Below, piece after piece: positions 39,768 through 52,425 of a stretch of DNA of 64,000 nucleotides (position 1 is the stretch's first letter; every line of letters starts with the position of its first letter). Made by a program: the position numbers and the translations under genes. The notes beneath the pieces were generated by a model that ran no database searches, was not told the DNA's origin, and saw nothing but the letters and a program-made list of their open reading frames with translations. Origin of the DNA: Phyllosticta citribraziliensis (taxonomy: Eukaryota); NCBI RefSeq assembly GCF_038025025.1, contig NW_027117342.1:1240001-1304000 (forward strand), read 5' to 3'.

Positions 39768-41502
39768 ATGGGTAGCACCGGCGAACTTCCGATTGAGCCT
39801 CACAAGACGTTCGACACCATTCTGGTGTTGGACTTCGGTACACACCACCAGTCGAACGCTCCGAGAGCGCATTATGACTAACAGTAAACAAAGGCTCCCA
39901 GTACTCCCACCTGATAACCCGCCGCCTGCGCGAGCTCAATGTCTACTCGGAGATGCTGCCGTGCACCCAAAAGATTGCCGACCTGACCTGGAAGCCCAAG
40001 GGTGTCATTCTGTCCGGCTCGCCCTACTCGGTCTACAAGGAGGGTTCCCCTCACGCCGACCCCGCCGTTTTTGAACTGGGCGTTCCCATTCTCGGAATCT
40101 GTTACGGTCTGCAGGAGATTGCGTGGCAGCAGGGCAACAACGTGTGCGCTGGTGACAAGAAGGAATACGGCCACGCTTTCCTGAAGGTTGAGAAGCATCC
40201 CGGAAAGGCTCCGCACGTCGACAAGCTCTTCCAGGGTCTCGAGCAGGATCTCGAGGTGTGGATGTCGCACGGTGACAAGCTTTCTGCCCTCCCCAAGGAC
40301 TTTGCAATTCTTGCGACCACCTCCAACGCTCCGTTTGCTGGAATTGCTCACGAGCAAAAGGAGTGGTACGGCATCCAGTTCCACCCCGAGGTCACCCACT
40401 CGAAGAAGGGCAAGGAGGTCCTCCACAACTTCGCCGTCGGCATCTGCAAGGCGAACCAGAACTGGACCATGTCCAAGTTTGTGGACCAGGAGATTGACCG
40501 CATCAGGGCGCTCGTTGGCGACAAGGGACAGGTCATTGGTGCCGTCAGTGGTGGTGTGGACTCTACCGTTGCCGCCAAGCTGATGCAAAAGGCCATTGGC
40601 AGCCGCTTCCACGCTGTCTTGGTCGACAACGGCTTGCTCAGGCTCAACGAGGCCAAGACTGTGAAGGAGACGCTTGGTGAGCACCTGGGCATCAACCTGA
40701 AGGTGGTCGACGCCAGTGACCGCTTCCTCGGCAAGCTCAAGGGCATCCACGACGACCCAGAGAAGAAGCGCAAGGTTATCGGCAACACCTTCATCGAAGT
40801 GTTCCAGGAGGAGGCCAAGAAGATTGCGGCCGAGGCGCACAACACCTCGGACGAGGGCGAAATCGAATGGCTTCTCCAGGGCACGCTTTACCCCGATGTC
40901 ATTGAAAGCATTTCCTTCAAGGGCCCGAGTGCTACCATCAAGACGCACCACAACGTTGGTGGTCTGCTTGAGGGCATGCACCTGAAGCTCATTGAACCTC
41001 TTCGCGAGCTGTTCAAGGACGAAGTCCGCGCACTCGGCATGCAACTGGGCATCCCAGAGGAGCTGGTCTGGCGCCACCCCTTCCCCGGTCCTGGTATTGG
41101 CATCCGTGTTCTCGGCGAGGTCACTCCTGAGCAAGTTCGCATTGCTCGTCACGCCGACTACATTTTCATTGAGGAGATCAAGGCGGCAGGTCTTTACAGG
41201 AAGACGAGCCAGGCGTTTGCTGCACTTCTGCCCGTCAAGGCTGTCGGTGTCATGGGCGACCAGCGCGTGCACGCCCAGGTCATTGCTCTCCGGGCTGTTG
41301 AGACGACGGACTTTATGACTGCGGACTGGTATCCGTTTGACGGTGATTTCTTGAAGAGGGTGAGCAGGAGGATTGTAAACGAGGTTGACGGCGTGTGCCG
41401 CGTGGTTTACGACAGTAAGCTTTCTGCAGAAGAGCGCCGGGCTACATTTGCTGACGAGACACAGTTACGAGCAAGCCCCCGGGAACGATTGAGATGGAGT
41501 AG
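39768..41502 (+). CDS. GUA1: GMP synthase (glutamine-hydrolysing), 3 exons
   Basis: [71 protein letters not shown]. Confidence 0.97.
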
Positions 41503-41919
41503 AAATGGAGCACCACGAGGAGAATCGGTCGGACATGAATGGGCGTTTGGGGATTTGGGATGGCTTTTAGACACATGTAGAACATGCCGCGTGGTGGCAC
41601 CACAGCAATGCAAACGTCTCGATACCCAGCCCAGGGGCAGCATCAGCATCGTCATCAGCGCCGATGGGCACGGTAGCGGATCGGACGCAGGAGCGGGGAC
41701 GGGTTGACGCCATTGACCTGCATTCCCGGTCCTTGGCGGGGGCCCGATGGATGGTCGACCTGTGACGTCAGTGCCCGGACAGCATGTTAAATATGGCGTT
41801 TGGCTTGCACACGTCTCACAACTCAGCATCACACACATCTCTCTCCCAAACTCTCAACAACTCTACGCAATCCACGAACCCTTCCAATTCCAACAACCAA
41901 CACACCTCCAACAACCATC

Positions 41920-42846: not shown

Positions 42847-45800
42847 ATGTCTTCCTTGGTCGACGCTGTAATCAACTCCGAAATTGATCTCAATGCGCCA
42901 ACCCCCACTCCAAGCGAGGGAGCTCCCGGCGCACGGCAACCCAATGGCCGTTCCTCTTCGCGTCCCAGAGGGCCTCCTTCGGACAGCGCAGGACCCAATA
43001 GCGAAGCCAACATTCGCGATGACGATATTGCAGCCTCTCGGACTACTGTGAGAAGAGCAGCTGGCCCACGACAGGACATTCCTAAGGTGGTGGACGTAAC
43101 GGGTGAGACTTTGAGCCAGAGATTCGAGGAGTTTTTGGAATCGTGAGTTTTGCCCTGGACAAGAGAAGCACAACCTGCTGACCCCAATCAGGTACAGGGT
43201 AGAACCACAGCCAGTCTCTTCGGGAGTCCCGGCATCCAGCGTACAGACCACCGACAGGTATTACGTTTCCCAAGTCCACGGGCTCCGATCCTACAACCTA
43301 TCGACTCTCTATGTCGACTTCAACCACCTCATGCAACATGAAGAAGGCGTCCTTGGAGCGGCAATTGCGGACGAGTACTATCGTTTCTTGCCGTACATGA
43401 CGCGGGCCATGCACAATCTCATCGCAAAGCATGAGCCGCAGTACTTCAGGGACCATCGGCAACCAAACTATTCGGCCTCTAGCGTCGCCGCAACGAATCC
43501 AAACTCTACTGGCGAGACAATCGACTCGTTGGGCGACACGTTCGAATCAAAGACCCCCCACCAGCAGACGGACAAACTGTTTACCCTGGCTTTTTACAAC
43601 CTCCCGCTTGTATCAAGAATTAGGCAGTTGCGGACGTCTTCGATTGGAAGGCTTCTGTCGATATCTGGAACAGTAACAAGGACTTCAGAAGTCCGACCAG
43701 AGCTCTCCCTTGCAACATTCGTTTGCGAAATCTGCAACACGATTATTCCCAACATCGAGCAAACGTTCCGATATACGGAACCGACACAGTGCCCAAATTT
43801 GACGTGTGGCAACCGGACAGCTTGGCGTCTGGACATTCGGCAAAGCACTTTTGTCGACTGGCAAAAGGTGCGCATCCAGGAAAACAGCTCGGAAATTCCC
43901 ACAGGAAGCATGCCACGAACTCTCGATGTTATCTTGCGCGGCGAGATTGTGGATCGTGCCAAAGCTGGTGAAAAGTGCATCTTTACCGGCACGCCTATCG
44001 TCATCCCAGATGTCAGCCAGTTCAGAGTCCCCGGAATCCGACCTCAAGCGACGAAAGACTTGAATGGTCAACGTGGCACAGATGTCGGCGGGAATGGAGT
44101 TTCTGGTCTCAAGGCTCTCGGAGTGAGGGATCTGACCTACAGATTGGCCTTCATGGCCTGCATGGTGACACCGGATACTTCGACCCCCGGTCAAGCTTCC
44201 ACACAAGAGTTACATGGCCAAGCAGGCAATATTCTTCAGTCGCTCAACCAAATTGGGCCTACCGACAATTATTTGCGTCTTTCCTCCGAACAGGCGCAGT
44301 CCGAGCTTTTGGCTACCATGACACCAGCCGAAATCGAAGACCTCAAGAGCATGGTGCACGGCGACAACATGTTCATGCGGCTTGTCGACTCTATTGCACC
44401 CATGGTGTACGGCCATTCCGTCATCAAGAAGGGCCTGTTACTGCAACTGATGGGCGGTGTCAGCAAAGTTACGCCGGAAGGCATGGCTCTCCGTGGTGAC
44501 ATCAACATCTGCATCGTTGGCGATCCCAGTACCTCCAAGTCGCAGTTTCTCAAGTACATCTGCAGTTTTCTGCCGCGGTCTGTCTACACCTCTGGTAAAG
44601 CATCTTCAGCTGCTGGTCTGACGGCCGCCGTGGTCAAGGACGAGGAAACTGGAGACTTTACCATTGAGGCTGGTGCTCTGATGCTGGCGGACAACGGCAT
44701 CTGTGCGATTGATGAATTTGACAAGATGGACATCGTCGACCAGGTTGCCATTCACGAAGCCATGGAGCAGCAGACAATCTCGATTGCCAAAGCAGGTATT
44801 CAGGCTACGTTGAACGCACGTACGTCAATTCTTGCAGCGGCAAATCCAGTCGGCGGTCGTTACAACCGCAAGACCACCCTCCGTGCCAACGTCAACATGA
44901 GCGCCCCCATCATGTCCCGTTTTGACTTGTTCTTCGTCGTTCTTGACGAGTGTGAGGAGAGCGTCGACCGCCACCTTGCCGAACACATTGTCAACATCCA
45001 CCGACTGCGCGACGACGCCGTCGAACCGGAATTCAGCACCGCCCAGCTGCAGCGCTACATCCGCTTCGCTCAGACCTTCAAGCCGGAATTCACCCCTGAG
45101 GCCAAGGATTGTCTCGTGGAAAAGTACAAGGAGCTCCGCGCCGACGACGCCCAGGGAGGCATCGGCCGCAACAGCTACCGCATCACCGTCCGTCAACTCG
45201 AAAGCATGATTCGTCTGTCCGAAGCCATTGCAAAGGCCAACTGCGTCGAAGAAGTTACGCCCGAGTTTGTGCGCGAAGCGTACAACCTGCTGCGGCAGAG
45301 CATCATATCTGTCGAAAAGGACGACATCGAGGTCGAAGACGACGAGCCGGCGGCGCAAGACGCGCAGCCGGGCGCCAACGCTGCCGACGAAGAAATGGCT
45401 GATGCGGGCGGCGAGAACGATGCCCCCGCTGCTCCTGCCGTACCTGATGAAGCCGTGCCGCCAGCTCAGCGAAAGATCACCATCACTTACGACAAGTACA
45501 TGTCGATCCTCAACCTCATGGTGCAGCGCATCAACCAGGACGCGGCGACAGCCGAGGACGGCGTCGAGGAGAATGAGCTCCTTATCTGGTACCTCGAGCA
45601 AAAGGAGGCTGAGATTGAGACGCCGCAGGATATGGAAATTGAGAAGGTGTTGGCCAGGAAGGTCTTGAAACGCATGGTTCGGGTGAGTAACGGCAACACG
45701 GAGTCCCCTTATTATTTTCGAGGCAGAGCTAACTTTGTCTGCGCAGGAAAACATCCTCATGATGTTCGCCGGCGAGGGTCTTGCCGACGAGAACGGCCAA

Positions 45801-45863
45801 GGCTTGGTCAGCGATACCGTCATGTACGTCATGCATCCCAACTGCGCGATGGAGGAGATGTAA
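42847..45863 (+). CDS. MCM6: DNA replication licensing factor Mcm6, 3 exons
   Basis: GTVTRTSEVRPEL, CEIC..CPNLTC zinc finger, GDPSTSKSQ Walker A, IDEFDKM, SRFD arginine finger; ends YVMHPNCAMEEM*. Confidence 0.97.
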
Positions 45864-46562
45864 AGCACCCGTCTGTAAAAGAAGCGATGAGAAATAAAAT
45901 GGGCAACAATGATGGGCTTTTTGGGTCTGGGCGACGACCCCGGCTCTTGGGGTTAATGGCGTTTGGAGCGCTCAGGGGTTGGGTGATACCAAGATATATT
46001 TATGACGGCACTGTTTCGCCAATCAATGAATGCCACTGCTGTGTTTCGACGGATTATTGCACTGATGAGATTGAATCAAGTGGAAGATTCCAATTCACCC
46101 GTGGACTGCTTGTAATGCTGAGTTGACGACACTTCATGAGCCCTCGCTCGAGTCCCAACCAGACAGACATCGAATGAGGGCTCCCTCCGCTGGCTGAAAG
46201 ATGGTAATATCAAATGAGTTAGAATCGGTATACATCATGTCAAAATCAACGTGAGCCATTATTGTTGCTATTCTTCGTTGCAAACAATAGTAGGTAGACG
46301 CAGCCTTCGTGAGGAGGCGATGTCCGCAACCCCCCTGGACCTGTCGAAGCCTCCATATCTTGTTGAGACCTGCAAGAAGAAGTTCCCGAGCAAATTACGG
46401 CTGGAGAATTTGGCGTGACGCAGGCATTGGCCAGCAGTGGCAAGCTACTGATATCGCCGTTCAGGAAGCAAAGGAGGGGACTCTGCTTTGACGGCCTATA
46501 GAGTAGTTGGCTGGTGTATATTTCCCCGCATCGCCAAGATCTATTCAATAACGAGCAAATAG

Positions 46563-46746
46563 TCCATCGTGGTGCAGTGGTAGCACGCCAGACCATACAC
46601 GTTGGTGCGCCGCATTGCTTACGAGCGTGCCGCGCTGGTCCCAGAGCCGTCGATGTCTCGTACATTGACCGAGCTCAGGGATAGGTGCGAGTAGTGCAGA
46701 ACGGCATGTCAGTCTGGAGGCCCGAGTTCGACTCTCGGCGATGGAA
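46563..46746 (+). ncRNA. tRNA-like Pol III-type RNA, copy 1, with a 118-nt insert (46594-46711) in place of the anticodon loop
   Basis: Acceptor TCCATCG/CGATGGA, D arm GTGC-AGTGGTA-GCAC (A box), stem CCAGAC/GTCTGG, T arm CCGAG-TTCGACT-CTCGG (B box), T4 at 46763-46766. Confidence 0.8.
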
Positions 46747-46870
46747 CAATTGAGTGTATCTCTTTTGCACTCTCAAGATATAAGAGAAGGAGAGACCTCA
46801 CTTTTGGTGGCCAGCAGAAAGGTGAAGTGGCGTCTATGGGCCACGATCACCAAGCATTCAAGTCAGTAAA

Positions 46871-47045
46871 TCCATCGTGGTGCAGTGGTAGCACGCCAGA
46901 CAAAAGACCGCTTGCGCCGCATGTCTCACGAGGCATGCCGCACGACTGTTGTTTCTCCCGGTCTTTGACCTGTTGAGCTTACGCGGTGCGCGTAGCGCGC
47001 GAGGCACGGCAGTCTGGTACCCGAGTTCGACTCTCGGCGATGGAG
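46871..47045 (+). ncRNA. tRNA-like Pol III-type RNA, copy 2, with a 110-nt insert (46902-47011)
   Basis: First 31 nt identical to copy 1; identical T arm and acceptor 3' strand; 3-nt variable region; T-tracts at 47052-47062. Confidence 0.8.
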
Positions 47046-47051
47046 AGTGTC

Positions 47052-47062
47052 TTTTGTTTTTT
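47052..47062 (+). terminator. Putative RNA Pol III terminator (TTTTGTTTTTT) of tRNA-like copy 2
   Basis: Oligo-T runs 7 nt after the discriminator position. Confidence 0.7.
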
Positions 47063-47437
47063 GTCGGATGGTGGTTGATGTCGTGGGTAGCTCTTGGTTT
47101 TTGCGGAAACCCGCTTCGAGGGGTGGATAGGGGGCTAGCCTCAGACTTTACTGATGCTCATTGAGCGATGGGGGAGGCGGTCCACCATCGGGGAGCACAT
47201 ATCGTCATGATAGGGAAAGTTGAGGGCGTATTTGCTTGATCGAGGCGAAAAGGAAAAGGTAACACGCCTTAAGAGTGATCCGGGGCCGTAGAGCTAGATG
47301 TGAATGGTTTGAATTCGAGAAAAGAAGTCAGGAAACTGTAAACAAGCCGTACCATACCGCTCACAATAACGCCACCAGCGCCCCCTCAAAACCAGGCACA
47401 CCAGTCATCCAAGACTACAGCGAGCATCACTTTGATT

Positions 47438-49087
47438 TCATCCCCTGATCTCATCTTTGAGCGCATTTCCCTCTTCACCCAGATGTCCCAACAAGAAGCT
47501 GCGCTTGAAGTATTCGTTCGGATGGAGAATCGTGTCGAGTTGAGCGCCACTCCACGTGCCATCATCCTTGACCTTCTTAATCTCATTGCGATGCTTGTAC
47601 TCAAACACGCGGTTGCACGCAATATGGTACCGCTGTCGCTTGACATCGTCGCGCACCTCGTTGAGCGTCTGCCTGTCATTGATGCCCGTGTGTTGGAGGA
47701 GGCCGATCAAGTTGTCTGGCGCAAATGTGCGGTAAGGGCAGCCATGAGTCTGCCCGGGCCCGGGCAACGCTTCCGTCATCAGCTTCTGGCACGAGTACGG
47801 CGTGTAACCGCCACCCCGCCGGTTCGCATCTCCACCTACGTCGCCGTAGGCGTGGCGCACATTGTAGCGGTACTCTTTGTTGAACTTCTCGTCGGTGATG
47901 AGCTTGAAGCTGCGTCGCCAGAAGATGAGACACTCTTCCAAGCTGAGACCTATTCCCTTAAGGAAGAGTGTGTACTGGAGTCGTCCAAAGTGTTTGAGGT
48001 GCGAGTTTTGCCGCAGCGTGCGGTGGAGGTGCTGCATGCAAAGAGGAAAGTGTTGACTCAGGGCGTCGACGGAGGCAGCAGTGGGAGTGGTGAGGCCATC
48101 AAGGGCAGTGTCGGAGGAGTATGCGGTCTCGGGGGCTGTAAAGCTTGTGCTCAAGTGCGAGAGAATCGGTGAAAGGCGGTCGTCTTCGTCGAGGCGAGGG
48201 AGGGCGCGGGCAGTAAGCTGGCACTGTTAGTTTGCTGTTGGCATTTAAGTTGGACATACGCACCTCCATTGCCGTCTCCAATCTTCTGCTGAATTCAGCC
48301 AGCACAAGACTGCTTTGCTCCCGCACGGGTACGTAAGCCTTGCCCCTCTTCAAGAGCACCTTTCTTTGTTCGACCAGTTCCGGGACCTTTTCCCAGTCCA
48401 CCTTGAACCAGCCGTCTTCCTCTCCTTTGCTTTTGCCCCATGGTGTTGCAGCTCTGAGCTCCTCGCCAAACGACTTCCTCTCCTCTTCGGTCACCTTTTC
48501 CCACTCACTGCCCATGTCCAAAGAGTCCACAAAGTCTCTACGCTCACGGGTGTCGTCCTCATTCCATCTTAGACGAAACAGTGCGGTTTCCAGGCGGACA
48601 AACCGGCGGCGGAGGTCTTCGGTCGCAGAAAATGCCAGGCGCAGGATGAAATGTGAATAATGGTCCTTCTTCCTTTGCGCGTCTAGCTGAGTCGAGCGGC
48701 TGCTGTTTGACTGTAGTGGGAGATGTTTTTCAAGGATGGGCTTCATGTAGGATGTTGTCTCTTCGGGACCACGGTTACGAAACGAACAGGCTTCGAGTTC
48801 CGACAAGACTGCACACTTGTTAGTGGCCTTCTTAGGACGGAGCGCTTCGTAATAATCTGTCCTTCCAGGACAGAGCCGCCAGACTCAATTCACTGACCCT
48901 TGAGACGCGCGATTGCCCATTCTTCAAACTCTTCGAGTGTGATCTCGGCCGTGGGTGGTATAGTGTAAAAGTTGAGGCGGTGCTTGTATTCTTGGTCCCT
49001 CCATTTGGGAGCCGCAAACTGGCGTTTCTTGTAGTCGAGGTCGGTCCGGCGCTTGGCGTCGATGCGAGCGATAGATGAACGCTGCAT
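47438..49087 (-). CDS. PRI2: DNA primase large subunit, 3 exons
   Basis: RLNFYTIPPTAEITLEEFEEWAIARLK, KDHYSHFILRLAF, HFPLCM..HLKHFGRLQY, YNVRHAYG, HGCPYR, HPNEYF. Confidence 0.96.
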
Positions 49088-49364: not shown

Positions 49365-50615
49365 CTATCCCAGCAAGTCGCCCAACTTGTCCGCATAGAA
49401 AGCCGGCTTGACTCCAGTCCCATCTCCCTCGCCCAAAAAGTCCTCCTTCTTGTTCACGCCACTCAGCACAGCCAGAGTTCCGCCCAGCTGGCCTTCGATG
49501 CCAAAGCGAATGTCGGTGTTGAGACGGTCGCCAATCATGCATGTCCTGCTGCGATCGAATTTGAATTTGCCCTCAACCGCGTCCATCATAGCCTGGCTTG
49601 GCTTTCCAAGAGCCAACGGCGATTTCCCCGAGGCTGTCACCAAAGGTGCTTCAATGGACCCAGCCCCCGGGAACAAGGTGTGCGCCATGGGGAGTGTAGA
49701 GTCGGTGTTTGTTGCCAAAAACGTGGCTCCCCTCTTCAAGTATCCAAAGGCGTGCGCCAACTTCAAATAGTTGACGTGAAAGTCGAGACCGGCGAGGACG
49801 ATCCCAACATCGGGATCGAGAGCAGAGCCATCGGCAATGTTGGTGAAGTCCTCAGGCTCAATATCGCGGCGGAGGGAGGCATCTGTGCCGCCGATGAAGG
49901 GCACGTTTTCGGCACGGAGTTCCTCCTCGATGCCAGACTCCCCCAACACAAAGACCTTGTTCTTGGGAGCCGGAAGCTTGAGGATTCGCGCAATGTACAC
50001 CGCAGCGCTATACGCGGAGCCAAAGACCTCGTCCTAACTCATGTCAGCGGCCTGAAATACATGCGTTGCTAGAATCCATTGGTGTGCCGTTTTCTGAGAC
50101 ACGTACCACCGTCACAGGCACGCCGAGTTTGTCAAACTTCTTCTTGTAGTCTGCGCGGCTCTTTGTGCTATTGTTCGTCACAAACACAAGTTGTTTCCCT
50201 GCAGAGTGGTCGTTAGCAGGTCAGACACTAAGCAAGCATACCTTTCCCGACGCTCACCTTTGCTGCGAAGCATTTCCAGAGTTTCTGCGGTTCGAGGAAA
50301 GATGTGATCACCAGACCATAGCACACCTATCCTTCATGCGATTAGTCCCGAAGTCCGAGGTGCTCCTAGCCATGTCGGCTTTCAAAACCACTCTGCGCAG
50401 GCGCGTTGCCTTGGCTGCCATATTTCGGCGCGCGGGACTGGGTCGAGGGAATGCGCGTACCGTCACAGTCGAACAGGAAGGTCTGGGTGAAGTCTTTTAG
50501 TTCATGGTTCTTGGTGTCAGGATGGTTTGAGAAGAAATGTGTGACGCACATCAAACTTGGCAAGGAATTCCTCGATGGCCGGCTGGTCGCCGGACAAATA
50601 TCTTGGCTCCCCCAT
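49365..50615 (-). CDS. PHO13: 4-nitrophenylphosphatase / phosphoglycolate phosphatase (HAD IIA), multi-exon
   Basis: MGEPRYLSGD..KFD|TFLFDCDG|VLWSG, VFVTNNSTKSR, FLATNTD, LGKPSQ, MIGDRLNTDI. Confidence 0.93.
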
Positions 50616-50871: not shown

Positions 50872-52425
50872 TCATTCGCTACTCGAGTTGGCTTCCTCTG
50901 TTGAGTCTGTTTCTGGCCCCGAGGCCCTCGCCTGTCCCTGTCCATCGTAGCTTGTTTTGCGAAAAATTCCAACAAATCCTCCAATGTTGCTTGTTGTCAG
51001 TTTCGGTCTGCAAACGACCCTCCACTTCTCACTGGTGGCAGACTCGATGGACAGTCCTTCTAGGCTGTCTGGCGCAGGTTCTGCTTCAACCGAGGGCGCT
51101 TCTGGATTCTGCTGCTCCGTTTTGGCCTCTGCCTCATCAACATCATCGTTCCATTCGTTTGCCTTTGCCAGCTGTTTCTGGAACGATACATTATCGGCCG
51201 CGGCGGCTGATGTTGTTTTGGCAGTCTTCGTCTCTTTCAGGAGTTTGATTTCCCATGGTCTCGCGGTCTGACCGCCCCTCAATTCGGCCACATGTTCCAG
51301 GGCCAAAGGCAGGCGCGATTCTTTGATCGCTTTCAAACAGTCAGCAATTTGCGTTATGCTGGGGTTAAACACTGCAAGAATGCCATCGACCTGGAGAGCA
51401 CGAGCAACAGAAGGAAGATGATCTTCTGAGGCTGGGAGATCGAGGAAGACACGCGACAAGAATGGCTCAGGCTCATCTGCGCTTGAGTCGGACGACTGTG
51501 GTTTAGACATGGACTCCAGGCGCCTCTCAATCCACTGCGTTACGTCGCCCAAGTGAAAGTCGACGTGACGGGCATAAAGGCCGTGTCGAAAGTGTTTCAC
51601 GATTTGGCGGGCATGCACCATGTTGCGGCGCTTTGCCTCGACCGTGTGGACGACGGCACGTCGCTTTCCCTTCCACGCTTCGAAGGTATCTTCGTTCGAA
51701 ATTTCAGCGAGAGGTGAGTCGTATGTCGCATCTTCGGACGGATCTTCAGCGTCTGGCGAGGGCTGGATCGCTTCCGGGGCTTTGGGTAGTGGAGGGTTCG
51801 CAGCATGTATAGCCCTAGCAAGGTGTAGAGTCACTCCACCATGACCAGTACCAGCTTCCAAAACCTCCAGTGGAGAAGTGGAAGCATTCTCTTGGCTGGG
51901 TGGGTCGACGTGTATGTCCATCAACCCCACAATCACATTGGCGTCATCGTGGTAGATCTGGACAGGGCCGGGTCAGCGCGACCGCGGAGAGATGGACATG
52001 GCGTGCAGTGAACGACGAACAGGAGTGGCAATCCGCGGGCTCAGGCGGACATACTCTTCAAGCGTCGGCTCGTGCAACCGAAACGAAGTTTTGGTTGATT
52101 TTATAACGTCGCGCGCGCGTTTTCCGATAATCTCGTCGTGGGTGATGGGGCGGCCGGCAAAGGCGGTTTGTCTGACTTGGCCACCCGATTTGAGAGCGTA
52201 AGTCAAGATGCCATCGTTGTCAGGCTTCTTTTTGTCGCGCAACAGAACCACGTCGCCCTCTGGCGGTGGGATGTCAGCATGGAAGGAGGGAGAGAAAGAA
52301 AAAAGTGCAGGGTGCGGCGTACCAGCGAACTGTCGAGGCCCGGAGCGTGAGGATATGGAGCGAAGACATTGACGGCACACGGGCAGGCGGAGAGGCCTCG
52401 GTGCAGGGCGACAGGCGGCGAGCAT
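50872..52425 (-). CDS. tRNA (adenine58-N1)-methyltransferase catalytic subunit, GCD14/TRM61-like, probably mitochondrial
   Basis: Arg-rich N-terminal presequence, HDEIIGK, PTLEEYVRLSPRIATP|IYHDDANVIVGLMD, VLEAGTGHGGVTLHL, FLDLP, VFNPSITQI. Confidence 0.87.

Follow-up and report, generated by a model that had tools for sequence, protein, structure and literature searches.

Two tRNA-shaped fungal genes with long inserts in the anticodon arm: possible members of a gene family in which the inserted domain is the selected product

Introduction

Introns of transfer RNA (tRNA) genes are usually regarded as short, fast-evolving spacers in genes that encode adaptors. In the account given in PMC4090602, the eukaryotic splicing enzyme measures from the tRNA body and cuts between positions 37 and 38 (37/38), and all 16 intron-containing tRNA genes of Drosophila have been described as sharing a C:G proximal pair, an invariant 3-nucleotide (nt) bulge at the 3' cut, and a distance of 6 nt from the C to the end of exon 1 (PMC6614914). 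The predicted structure of the Drosophila tricRNA tric31905, the intron of tRNA:Tyr-GUA CR31905, was reported to covary, and the Broccoli aptamer has been placed in a tRNA intron (PMC6614914). In yeast, free tRNA introns (fitRNAs) are described as acting on mRNAs, with one family forming circles (PMC13079951). In the present study, we describe two tRNA-shaped genes, each of which carries a long insert in its anticodon arm, in a 64-kb stretch of eukaryotic nuclear DNA (contig NW_027117342.1 of Phyllosticta citribraziliensis; the whole stretch is referred to as the window). In these genes, the usual roles may be reversed, with the tRNA as the frame and the insert as the selected part.

The interpretation that we favor, with a confidence that is about even, is one of a small gene family that is dispersed in the genome, restricted to a lineage, and derived from tRNA genes, with both copies as members and RNA polymerase III (Pol III) as the transcribing enzyme, and in which the inserted domain would be the selected product and the tRNA shell would serve as a promoter and processing frame. 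We consider this to be the most economical reading because the shells are kept perfect in the two old duplicates and in dispersed paralogues, no sound anticodon is obtained, the insert of copy 2 is better kept than the rest of its contig, and the long hairpin of copy 1 shows compensated changes.

Results

Two tRNA-shaped genes enclosing long inserts

The two genes, hereafter copies 1 and 2, are listed with their parts in Table 1. Their shells were identical over 31, 6, and 25 nt, whereas their flanks and inserts aligned at only approximately 55-60%. The 31-nt 5' half had exactly two exact matches, at 46563-46593 and 46871-46901, with a spacing of 308 nt, and the 24-nt strand comprising the T arm and acceptor also had exactly two, at 46722-46745 and 47021-47044; none of 100 shuffles matched in either case. 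In both copies, CCAGAC and GTCTGG form a 6-bp anticodon stem that encloses the insert. When introns were allowed, the two copies were the only genes that ARAGORN reported in the 64-kb window, and the acceptor (7 bp), D (4 bp), and T (5 bp) stems of both were perfect; its default setting reported no tRNA. The variable region and base 73 were AGGC (4 nt) and A73 in copy 1 and TAC (3 nt) and G73 in copy 2. Both copies have A and B boxes, as judged by inspection against the consensus sequences. The z value of the whole-gene fold was -3.40 for copy 1 and -1.71 for copy 2.

No match to Rfam 15 was obtained at the gathering score in the whole 64-kb window, and a search of 46400-47200 at E up to 10 returned only two sub-threshold matches. 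The first was a partial match to RF00005 (tRNA) at 17.0 bits against a gathering score of 29, a shortfall that weighs little because the long insert breaks the model. The second, a mir-320 match at 46753-46801 on the minus strand (18.1 bits against a gathering score of 55.5), was treated as chance. An initial annotation, made from the letters of this DNA, had proposed the two repeats and their spacing, inserts of 118 and 110 nt, perfect acceptor, D, and T stems, a downstream oligo-T in each copy, and a candidate family not yet described. The exact scans and ARAGORN bore out the repeats, lengths, and stems, the downstream oligo-T was found in each case, as T4 after copy 1 and T4 plus T6 after copy 2, and the Rfam check agreed with the last point.

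The copies are separated only by T4 runs (46763-46766 and 46802-46805), and T4 plus T6 stand behind copy 2; it is conceivable that Pol III reads through and transcribes both units as one RNA. One contig of run X3, the RNA label of which is a guess, was identical to 46511-46794, namely, copy 1 unspliced with its flanks, and the contigs of this run left 46939-47005 uncovered; neither observation says anything on expression or splicing.

Folds of the inserts and the pattern of their changes

The insert of copy 1 was predicted to fold at -51.8 kcal/mol (z = -3.17), in comparison with -41.5 kcal/mol (z = -1.89) for the opposite strand, and none of 200 shuffles was as stable as its 59-nt hairpin at 46631-46689. 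The two inserts have the following ordered blocks in common: TGCGCCGCAT..CT.ACGAG..TGCCGC, TTGACC, GAGCT, GGTGCG.GTAG, and GGCA. A hairpin with a YACG loop is also present in both (46612-46630 in copy 1 and 46919-46938 in copy 2), with wobble and paired changes between the two versions, and a T at 46927 in the related organism B turns the loop of copy 2 into UACG, as in copy 1. Judging by these blocks, the inserts are homologous but diverged. A common three-way junction was rejected for the two inserts, as it cost 2.5 kcal/mol in copy 1 but 9.3 kcal/mol in copy 2.

Regarding related organisms, all comparisons were based on Logan contigs from four runs, obtained in one search and seen as difference tables. 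Contigs were aligned at 80% likeness; their ends can be trimmed or extended by chance, and the letters between two pieces of a contig were unseen.

In organism B, a contig that joins the 3' end of MCM6 to copy 1 covered 46563-46739 with 11 differences and no gaps. Among the five visible differences, four made up two compensated pairs in the 59-nt hairpin and the fifth (46659) was located in a loop, such that all five left the predicted fold intact. At 46635:46685 (C>T, G>A), C-G became U-A in organism B, and at 46656:46662 (T>C, A>G), U-A became C-G. Another relative, organism D, carried a U:G intermediate at 46635:46685 (T with G), which pairs only in the RNA of the plus strand. When five substitutions were placed at random, at least two compensated pairs arose in 8e-5 of trials, or in 4e-4 when only transitions were allowed.

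A second contig of organism B covered copy 2 onward (46872-47504) with 48 differences and 13 gap letters, and the list of differences in copy 2 was taken as complete because all 13 gap letters were accounted for. The insert of copy 2 had 3 substitutions and 1 deletion in 110 nt, whereas the next 99 nt after copy 2 in the same contig had 14 substitutions and 4 indel events. The difference in substitutions was significant against these 99 nt (Fisher p = 0.004) and against the whole flank (45 substitutions in 459 nt, p = 0.013). All four changes in this insert fell at unpaired positions of the optimal fold, for which the chance expectation is approximately 0.007. Considering these patterns of change, the inserts are conserved in structure or sequence beyond the needs of splicing, as in functional tRNA introns. 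None of the readings predicts a decoding function for copy 2, and even so no other stretch of its contig is as well kept as its insert.

Further members at other loci

Besides the contigs orthologous to the two copies, non-orthologous contigs matched the shell only: six with both halves (five from run X5 and record 4 of run X3) and a seventh (record 21 of run X7) with the 5' half only. Record 4 of run X3 implies an insert of approximately 126 nt at the same site. At least CATA was kept after C32 in all seven, and a TGTCA remnant was kept in two of the six with both halves. The 5' homology broke at 46597, 46599, and 46599 in three contigs and at 46631-46634 in the other four, while the 3' pieces of the six began at 46702, 46707, 46709, 46710, 46714, and 46715. 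These breaks near 37/38, and not near 32/33, are therefore like exon-intron boundaries. Homology ended at position 73 with no tail or 3' body unrelated to tRNA, the 3' flanks mostly carried runs of T4-T6, and the 5' flanks were rich in A and C. About ten contigs at most were seen per organism, and the family in organism B has at least 8 members. An exact scan with the 5' half yielded no matches in the metagenome, genome, and viral contig collections, nor did one with the 3' half in the genome contig collection.

In organism D (run X7), a single copy was joined to DNA that follows copy 2 in the window (46746 to 47060), with 16 other letters in between. Since the flanks of the two copies differ by approximately 40%, which is far above the distance between organisms A and D, we infer an old duplication with the later loss of one copy in organism D by recombination between the copies.

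Intron placement and decoding

No intron placement gave a loop with U33 together with matching identity bases in either copy. With free intron placement (ARAGORN -i), copy 1 was called tRNA-Asp(GTC) with a 113-nt intron (46594-46706) after C32 (32/33) at a score of 114.6, and its loop after this cut would be C-U-GUC-A-G with U33, a result obtained for copy 1 only. Under the same setting, copy 2 was forced to Ala(AGC) with a 3-nt variable region; it has C-GGC-A at the site of the Asp anticodon and carries G73 without a GUC anticodon. When the intron was fixed at 37/38, copy 1 became Val(TAC) with a 111-nt intron, A33, and the lower five pairs of the 6-bp stem at a score of 109.3, and copy 2 became Phe(AAA) with A33. 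The isotype call carries little weight here because ARAGORN gives Asp, Val, Ala, or Phe depending on one setting. A 37/38 cut in the plain 5-bp register would leave the loops CCAUACG in copy 1 and CAAAAGG in copy 2, neither with U33, and the 6-bp register would leave CAUACAA in copy 1; position 33 was C or A across the 37/38 readings. The part excised from copy 1 could be 46594-46706 (32/33), 46599-46711 (37/38), or 46600-46710 (37/38 in the 6-bp register), while a 37/38 cut in copy 2 would remove 46907-47011 (105 nt).

The geometry of splicing was inspected by eye. In the 5-bp register of copy 2, C46901 pairs with G47009, positions 47010-47012 form the bulge, and the 5' cut would come after 46906. 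A corresponding arrangement is seen in copy 1 only in the 6-bp register shifted by one base, where C46594:G46708 is followed by A:U and U:A, the bulge occupies 46709-46711, and the 5' cut would come after 46599. Since a C:G pair, 3-nt bulge, and 6-nt spacing can thus be read in each copy, albeit in different registers, cutting at or beside 37/38 is plausible, and the mature RNA may lack the insert, which would then be removed as an intron is. A scan for the strict bulge-helix-bulge motif, defined as two 3-nt bulges separated by a 4-bp helix, returned 10 candidates for copy 1 and 6 for copy 2, but no candidate in either gene cut at 32/33 or restored a cloverleaf with a 7-nt loop. Informal inspection of the insert sequences by eye revealed no group I or spliceosomal boundaries, no box C/D or H/ACA motifs, and no terminal inverted repeats or target duplications of the insert.

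Several statements of the initial annotation were thereby supported, including the 37/38 loops that lack U33, the Asp reading in copy 1 only and with A73, the 3-nt variable region of copy 2, and, as no placement combines U33 with fitting identity bases, the view that these are not ordinary intron-containing decoder tRNAs. Other statements stood in part. A structured domain is upheld by the two compensated pairs in copy 1 and the low level of change in copy 2 relative to its flank, but not as a single fold common to both inserts. The description of the anticodon loop as replaced was correct in that a long insert occupies the anticodon arm, but was too strong in view of the apparent 37/38 splice hallmarks in both copies and the breaks of paralogues near 37/38. 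Both members of the tandem pair are real, but the pair is not isolated, with further members at other loci in the contigs of related organisms. The lack of conservation that the initial annotation had allowed for was not seen, as both copies were present with their inserts in these contigs.

Genomic neighborhood

The pair is placed between the 3' ends of the convergent genes for MCM6 and the large subunit of DNA primase (PRI2). Using the C-terminal half of MCM6 as a query, 363 relatives were found among 594 matched stretches, and 80 metagenomic loci were kept. In these 80 loci, blastn-short with both copies gave only two chance matches of 14-15 nt, ARAGORN -i found no tRNA genes, a PRI2 match was present in none of the fetched flanks (also at a stricter cut-off), and DNA similarity stopped at MCM6. 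These fungal loci proved too distant for a comparison; the absence of PRI2 from the fetched flanks indicates that the MCM6-PRI2 neighborhood is not general.

Over 45824-46012 within MCM6, organism B was represented in run X5 by two different contigs with 14 and 7 differences in 189 nt and unlike depths, which suggests two diverged genome copies or strains in this run. At 47281, a contig of run X3 begins right behind the letters of a sequencing adapter, and the PRI2 transcript may have its 3' end here in that library. An open reading frame with a weak match to GCD14/TRM61, a subunit of the tRNA m1A58 methyltransferase, lies 4 kb from the tRNA-shaped pair, and this proximity is probably a coincidence.

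Table 1. Coordinates of the two tRNA-shaped genes, their parts, and neighboring protein-coding genes in the window
Feature	Position	Strand	Basis
Copy 1, whole gene, position 1 to discriminator A73, 184 nt	46563-46746	+	ARAGORN -i cloverleaf, score 114.6
Copy 1, 5' half of shell: acceptor 5' strand, D arm (A-box region), anticodon-stem 5' strand CCAGAC	46563-46593	+	Exact 31-nt repeat, cloverleaf
Copy 1, inserted domain, 118 nt inside the 6-bp stem	46594-46711	+	Sequence, ARAGORN
Copy 1, predicted hairpin with UACG loop, in a block shared with copy 2	46612-46630	+	Constrained fold, at most 2.5 kcal/mol from optimum
Copy 1, predicted long hairpin, 24 bp, 59 nt	46631-46689	+	-32.4 kcal/mol, z = -4.50
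Copy 1, 3' half of shell: anticodon-stem 3' strand, 4-nt variable region, T arm (B-box region), acceptor 3' strand, A73	46712-46746	+	Sequence, ARAGORN
Possible weak Pol III terminator: T4, 17 nt past the end of copy 1	46763-46766	+	Sequence
Copy 2, whole gene, position 1 to G73, 175 nt	46871-47045	+	ARAGORN -i, score 107.0
Copy 2, 5' half of shell, identical to that of copy 1	46871-46901	+	Exact 31-nt repeat
Copy 2, inserted domain, 110 nt	46902-47011	+	Sequence, ARAGORN
Copy 2, predicted hairpin, 8 bp, CACG loop; counterpart of 46612-46630	46919-46938	+	Predicted fold
Copy 2, 3' half of shell, 3-nt variable region, G73	47012-47045	+	Sequence, ARAGORN
T4 (47052-47055) then T6 (47057-47062), 7 nt after copy 2; Pol III terminator-like	47052-47062	+	Sequence
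GMP synthase	39878-41704	+	Pfam
MCM6	43115-46123	+	Pfam
DNA primase large subunit (PRI2)	47441-48884	-	Pfam
HAD hydrolase	49368-50033	-	Pfam
Weak GCD14/TRM61 match	50875-51972	-	Pfam, 28.6 bits against a cut-off of 26

Discussion

Alternative explanations

The main rival to a family selected for its inserts, and in our judgment an unlikely one, is that copy 1 and its paralogues with TGTCAG are genuine tRNA-Asp(GUC) genes with a 113-nt non-canonical intron at 32/33, which an unusual mode of the endonuclease would remove; the structure of the insert would then serve the presentation of splice sites and the folding of the body, and copy 2 would be a degenerate twin. The Asp(GTC) call did have the top score of all readings, with U33 and A37, and the UCC start and 4-nt variable region of the body are typical of Asp/Glu-type tRNAs. 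However, copy 1 has A73, G38, and G10-C25, in contrast to the yeast Asp identity set of G73, C38, and G10-U25; a C32:G38 pair would close the loop; and, by our own estimate, an anticodon that fits the type of the body has an approximately 5-10% chance of arising when the intron may be chosen freely. The number of members in organism B (at least 8) is close to the usual copy number of a tRNA isoacceptor. Three contigs (record 4 of run X3, record 17 of run X6, and one of run X5 with its joint to 46702) match copy 1 from 46707 or earlier and keep TGTCAG within two unplaced differences per piece, but the anticodon is kept in only two of the six paralogues with both halves, while CATA on what would be the intron side is kept in all seven contigs resembling copy 1. 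Yeast tRNA families in which one copy has an intron are described as having introns in all copies (PMC13079951), a point in favor of this rival. The site of the cut itself is more difficult to accommodate, as none of the strict bulge-helix-bulge candidates in either copy (10 and 6, respectively) cuts at 32/33 and the ruler mechanism reported for eukaryotes would cut at 37/38 (PMC4090602). In the contig of copy 2, which has no such anticodon, conservation is nevertheless strongest in the insert.

An improbable alternative is that the RNA of the copies has no function, either because they are tRNA pseudogenes in decay or because they represent a selfish repeat of tRNA origin akin to a short interspersed nuclear element (SINE), with shells that remain alike through gene conversion with active tRNA genes. 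The lack of a sound anticodon loop, the variable region of only 3 nt in copy 2, and the dispersal of the copies are what would be expected in this case, and tRNA-derived repeats with odd cloverleaves have been described in some fungal genomes (PMC8450103). The stretch of copy 1 in organism D also differs about as much as its flank. Decay would leave unexplained the two compensated pairs and the wobble intermediate in the hairpin of copy 1, as well as the contrast between 3 substitutions in the 110-nt insert of copy 2 and 14 in 99 nt of flank. Moreover, the homology of members stops at position 73 with no tail or unrelated 3' body, the number of contigs points to approximately ten copies and not to hundreds, and the inserts would not be maintained by gene conversion with ordinary tRNA genes as donors.

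It is very doubtful that the genes encode working decoders in which the intron is canonical (37/38) and only the loop is aberrant, e.g., copy 1 as a tRNA-Val(UAC) with a 6-bp anticodon stem and A33. Under this explanation, the Val(TAC) call at 109.3 with a 111-nt intron would be correct, and copy 1 would carry the valine identity bases A73, A35, and C36, but the UCC start of the body is unlike that of Val tRNAs, position 33 is A and not the near-universal U33, two bases stand between the D stem and the anticodon stem, and copy 2 would then be a Phe(AAA) with A33. When read by eye in this register, copy 1 conforms to the Drosophila pattern of a C:G proximal pair, 3-nt bulge, and 6-nt rule (PMC6614914), and the homology of paralogues breaks at 46597, 46599, and 46599. 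A role at the DNA level only, in which two tDNAs with intact A- and B-box regions bind TFIIIC and form a boundary between the 3' ends of convergent MCM6 and PRI2, is scarcely credible because only the boxes would be needed, leaving the perfect stems, conserved inserts, and compensated pairs unexplained, and because other family members are located at unrelated loci.

The proposal that the inserted domain is the selected product has its own difficulties, and the following points, in addition to the nature of the contig data described above, weigh against it. The insert of copy 2 is no more stable than shuffles (z = -0.56), and one overall fold is not common to the two inserts. The other 6 of the 11 differences of organism B in copy 1 are hidden by overlapping paralogue contigs or a contig end and could break pairs. 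In organism D, which has one copy with an insert, the copy 1 stretch (46562-46746) showed 15 differences and 9 gap letters in 185 nt against 9 and 3 in 122 nt of flank, and thus the insert is not clearly slower to change. A real tRNA-Asp would account for U-GUC-A at the exact place in copy 1 and in no fewer than 2-3 of the paralogues, and the identity of the shells could stem from gene conversion among tRNA-like paralogues instead of selection on each copy. Furthermore, the activity of the product and its transcription, end processing, splicing, and stability are predictions from sequence.

Proposed mechanism and significance

If the two genes are selected for the inserted domain, the shell would recruit TFIIIC and Pol III via its internal A and B boxes, direct the trimming of ends by RNase P and tRNase Z, and present the domain to the tRNA splicing endonuclease, which would cut at or next to 37/38. 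A structured RNA of approximately 105-113 nt (approximately 111-113 nt in the case of copy 1 and 105 nt in that of copy 2) would be released in a linear or circular form, and the ligated shell that is left over, with the loop CCAUACG or CAUACAA in copy 1 and CAAAAGG in copy 2, would lack U33 and be unable to decode. Alternatively, the domain may be retained to give a tRNA-like RNA of approximately 175-185 nt. By either route, the functional product would be the inserted domain.

More tentatively, and as a possibility in which we place less than even confidence, fungal tRNA genes may have been turned into expression cassettes, in which a non-decoding shell provides the promoter, processing signal, and endonuclease handle, the released intron RNA of approximately 105-113 nt, possibly circular, is functional, and different members carry cargoes with different folds. 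With such cassettes, a tRNA-gene family would for the first time be seen to persist for the sake of its intron instead of its tRNA.

If selection on the inserted domain is correct, these genes would represent a natural Pol III route to stable structured RNAs in fungi, a new class of small RNAs to be sought where tRNA finders and Rfam see nothing, and a test case for the choice of sites by the splicing endonuclease on long folded inserts. If the Asp reading is true instead, copy 1 would contain a fungal 32/33 intron without a bulge-helix-bulge, for which the literature examined (PMC4090602) describes no mechanism.

Comparison with known systems

Within the library of articles covered by the literature search, no description of such genes in fungi was found. 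Regarding overall architecture, the two copies resemble eukaryotic tRNA genes with 37/38 introns, which are processed by Sen/TSEN and Trl1, in being Pol III genes that have a complete cloverleaf, an anticodon arm with an insert, what reads by eye as a C:G pair beside a 3-nt bulge, paralogues with related inserts, and an oligo-T end. They differ from these genes in that the loop after the predicted cut has no U33 and no usable anticodon, the insert, at 105-118 nt, approaches the upper limit of the 6-133 nt reported for eukaryotes in PMC4090602, and the insert appears to be conserved by compensated changes.

Non-canonical introns of Cyanidioschyzon merolae, nucleomorphs, and archaea are similar in the location of the insert outside 37/38 in the anticodon loop, albeit under the Asp reading only, and differ in that their junctions are described as carrying bulge-helix-bulge motifs (PMC4090602), whereas the strict scan detected none at 32/33 in the present genes. 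No description of such introns in fungi was found in the literature examined. Similarities to tRNA-derived SINEs and to tRNA-derived Pol III RNAs such as BC1 include the derivation from tRNA, the internal Pol III promoter, dispersal, and the inability to decode; however, SINEs keep a 5' tRNA-like part with an unrelated body and tail, while both halves close around the insert in the present family and homology ends at position 73.

The nearest systems in function are tricRNAs and fitRNAs, in which a Pol III tRNA gene also yields its intron as a product. Their host gene is still an essential decoder, whereas free or circular introns of the present genes are predictions and their shell is seemingly non-decoding, such that the insert would be the reason for the gene to exist. 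Engineered tRNA scaffolds and tricRNA vectors also carry a cargo RNA in the anticodon arm of a tRNA, but are artificial, and the family described herein would be their natural, evolving counterpart.

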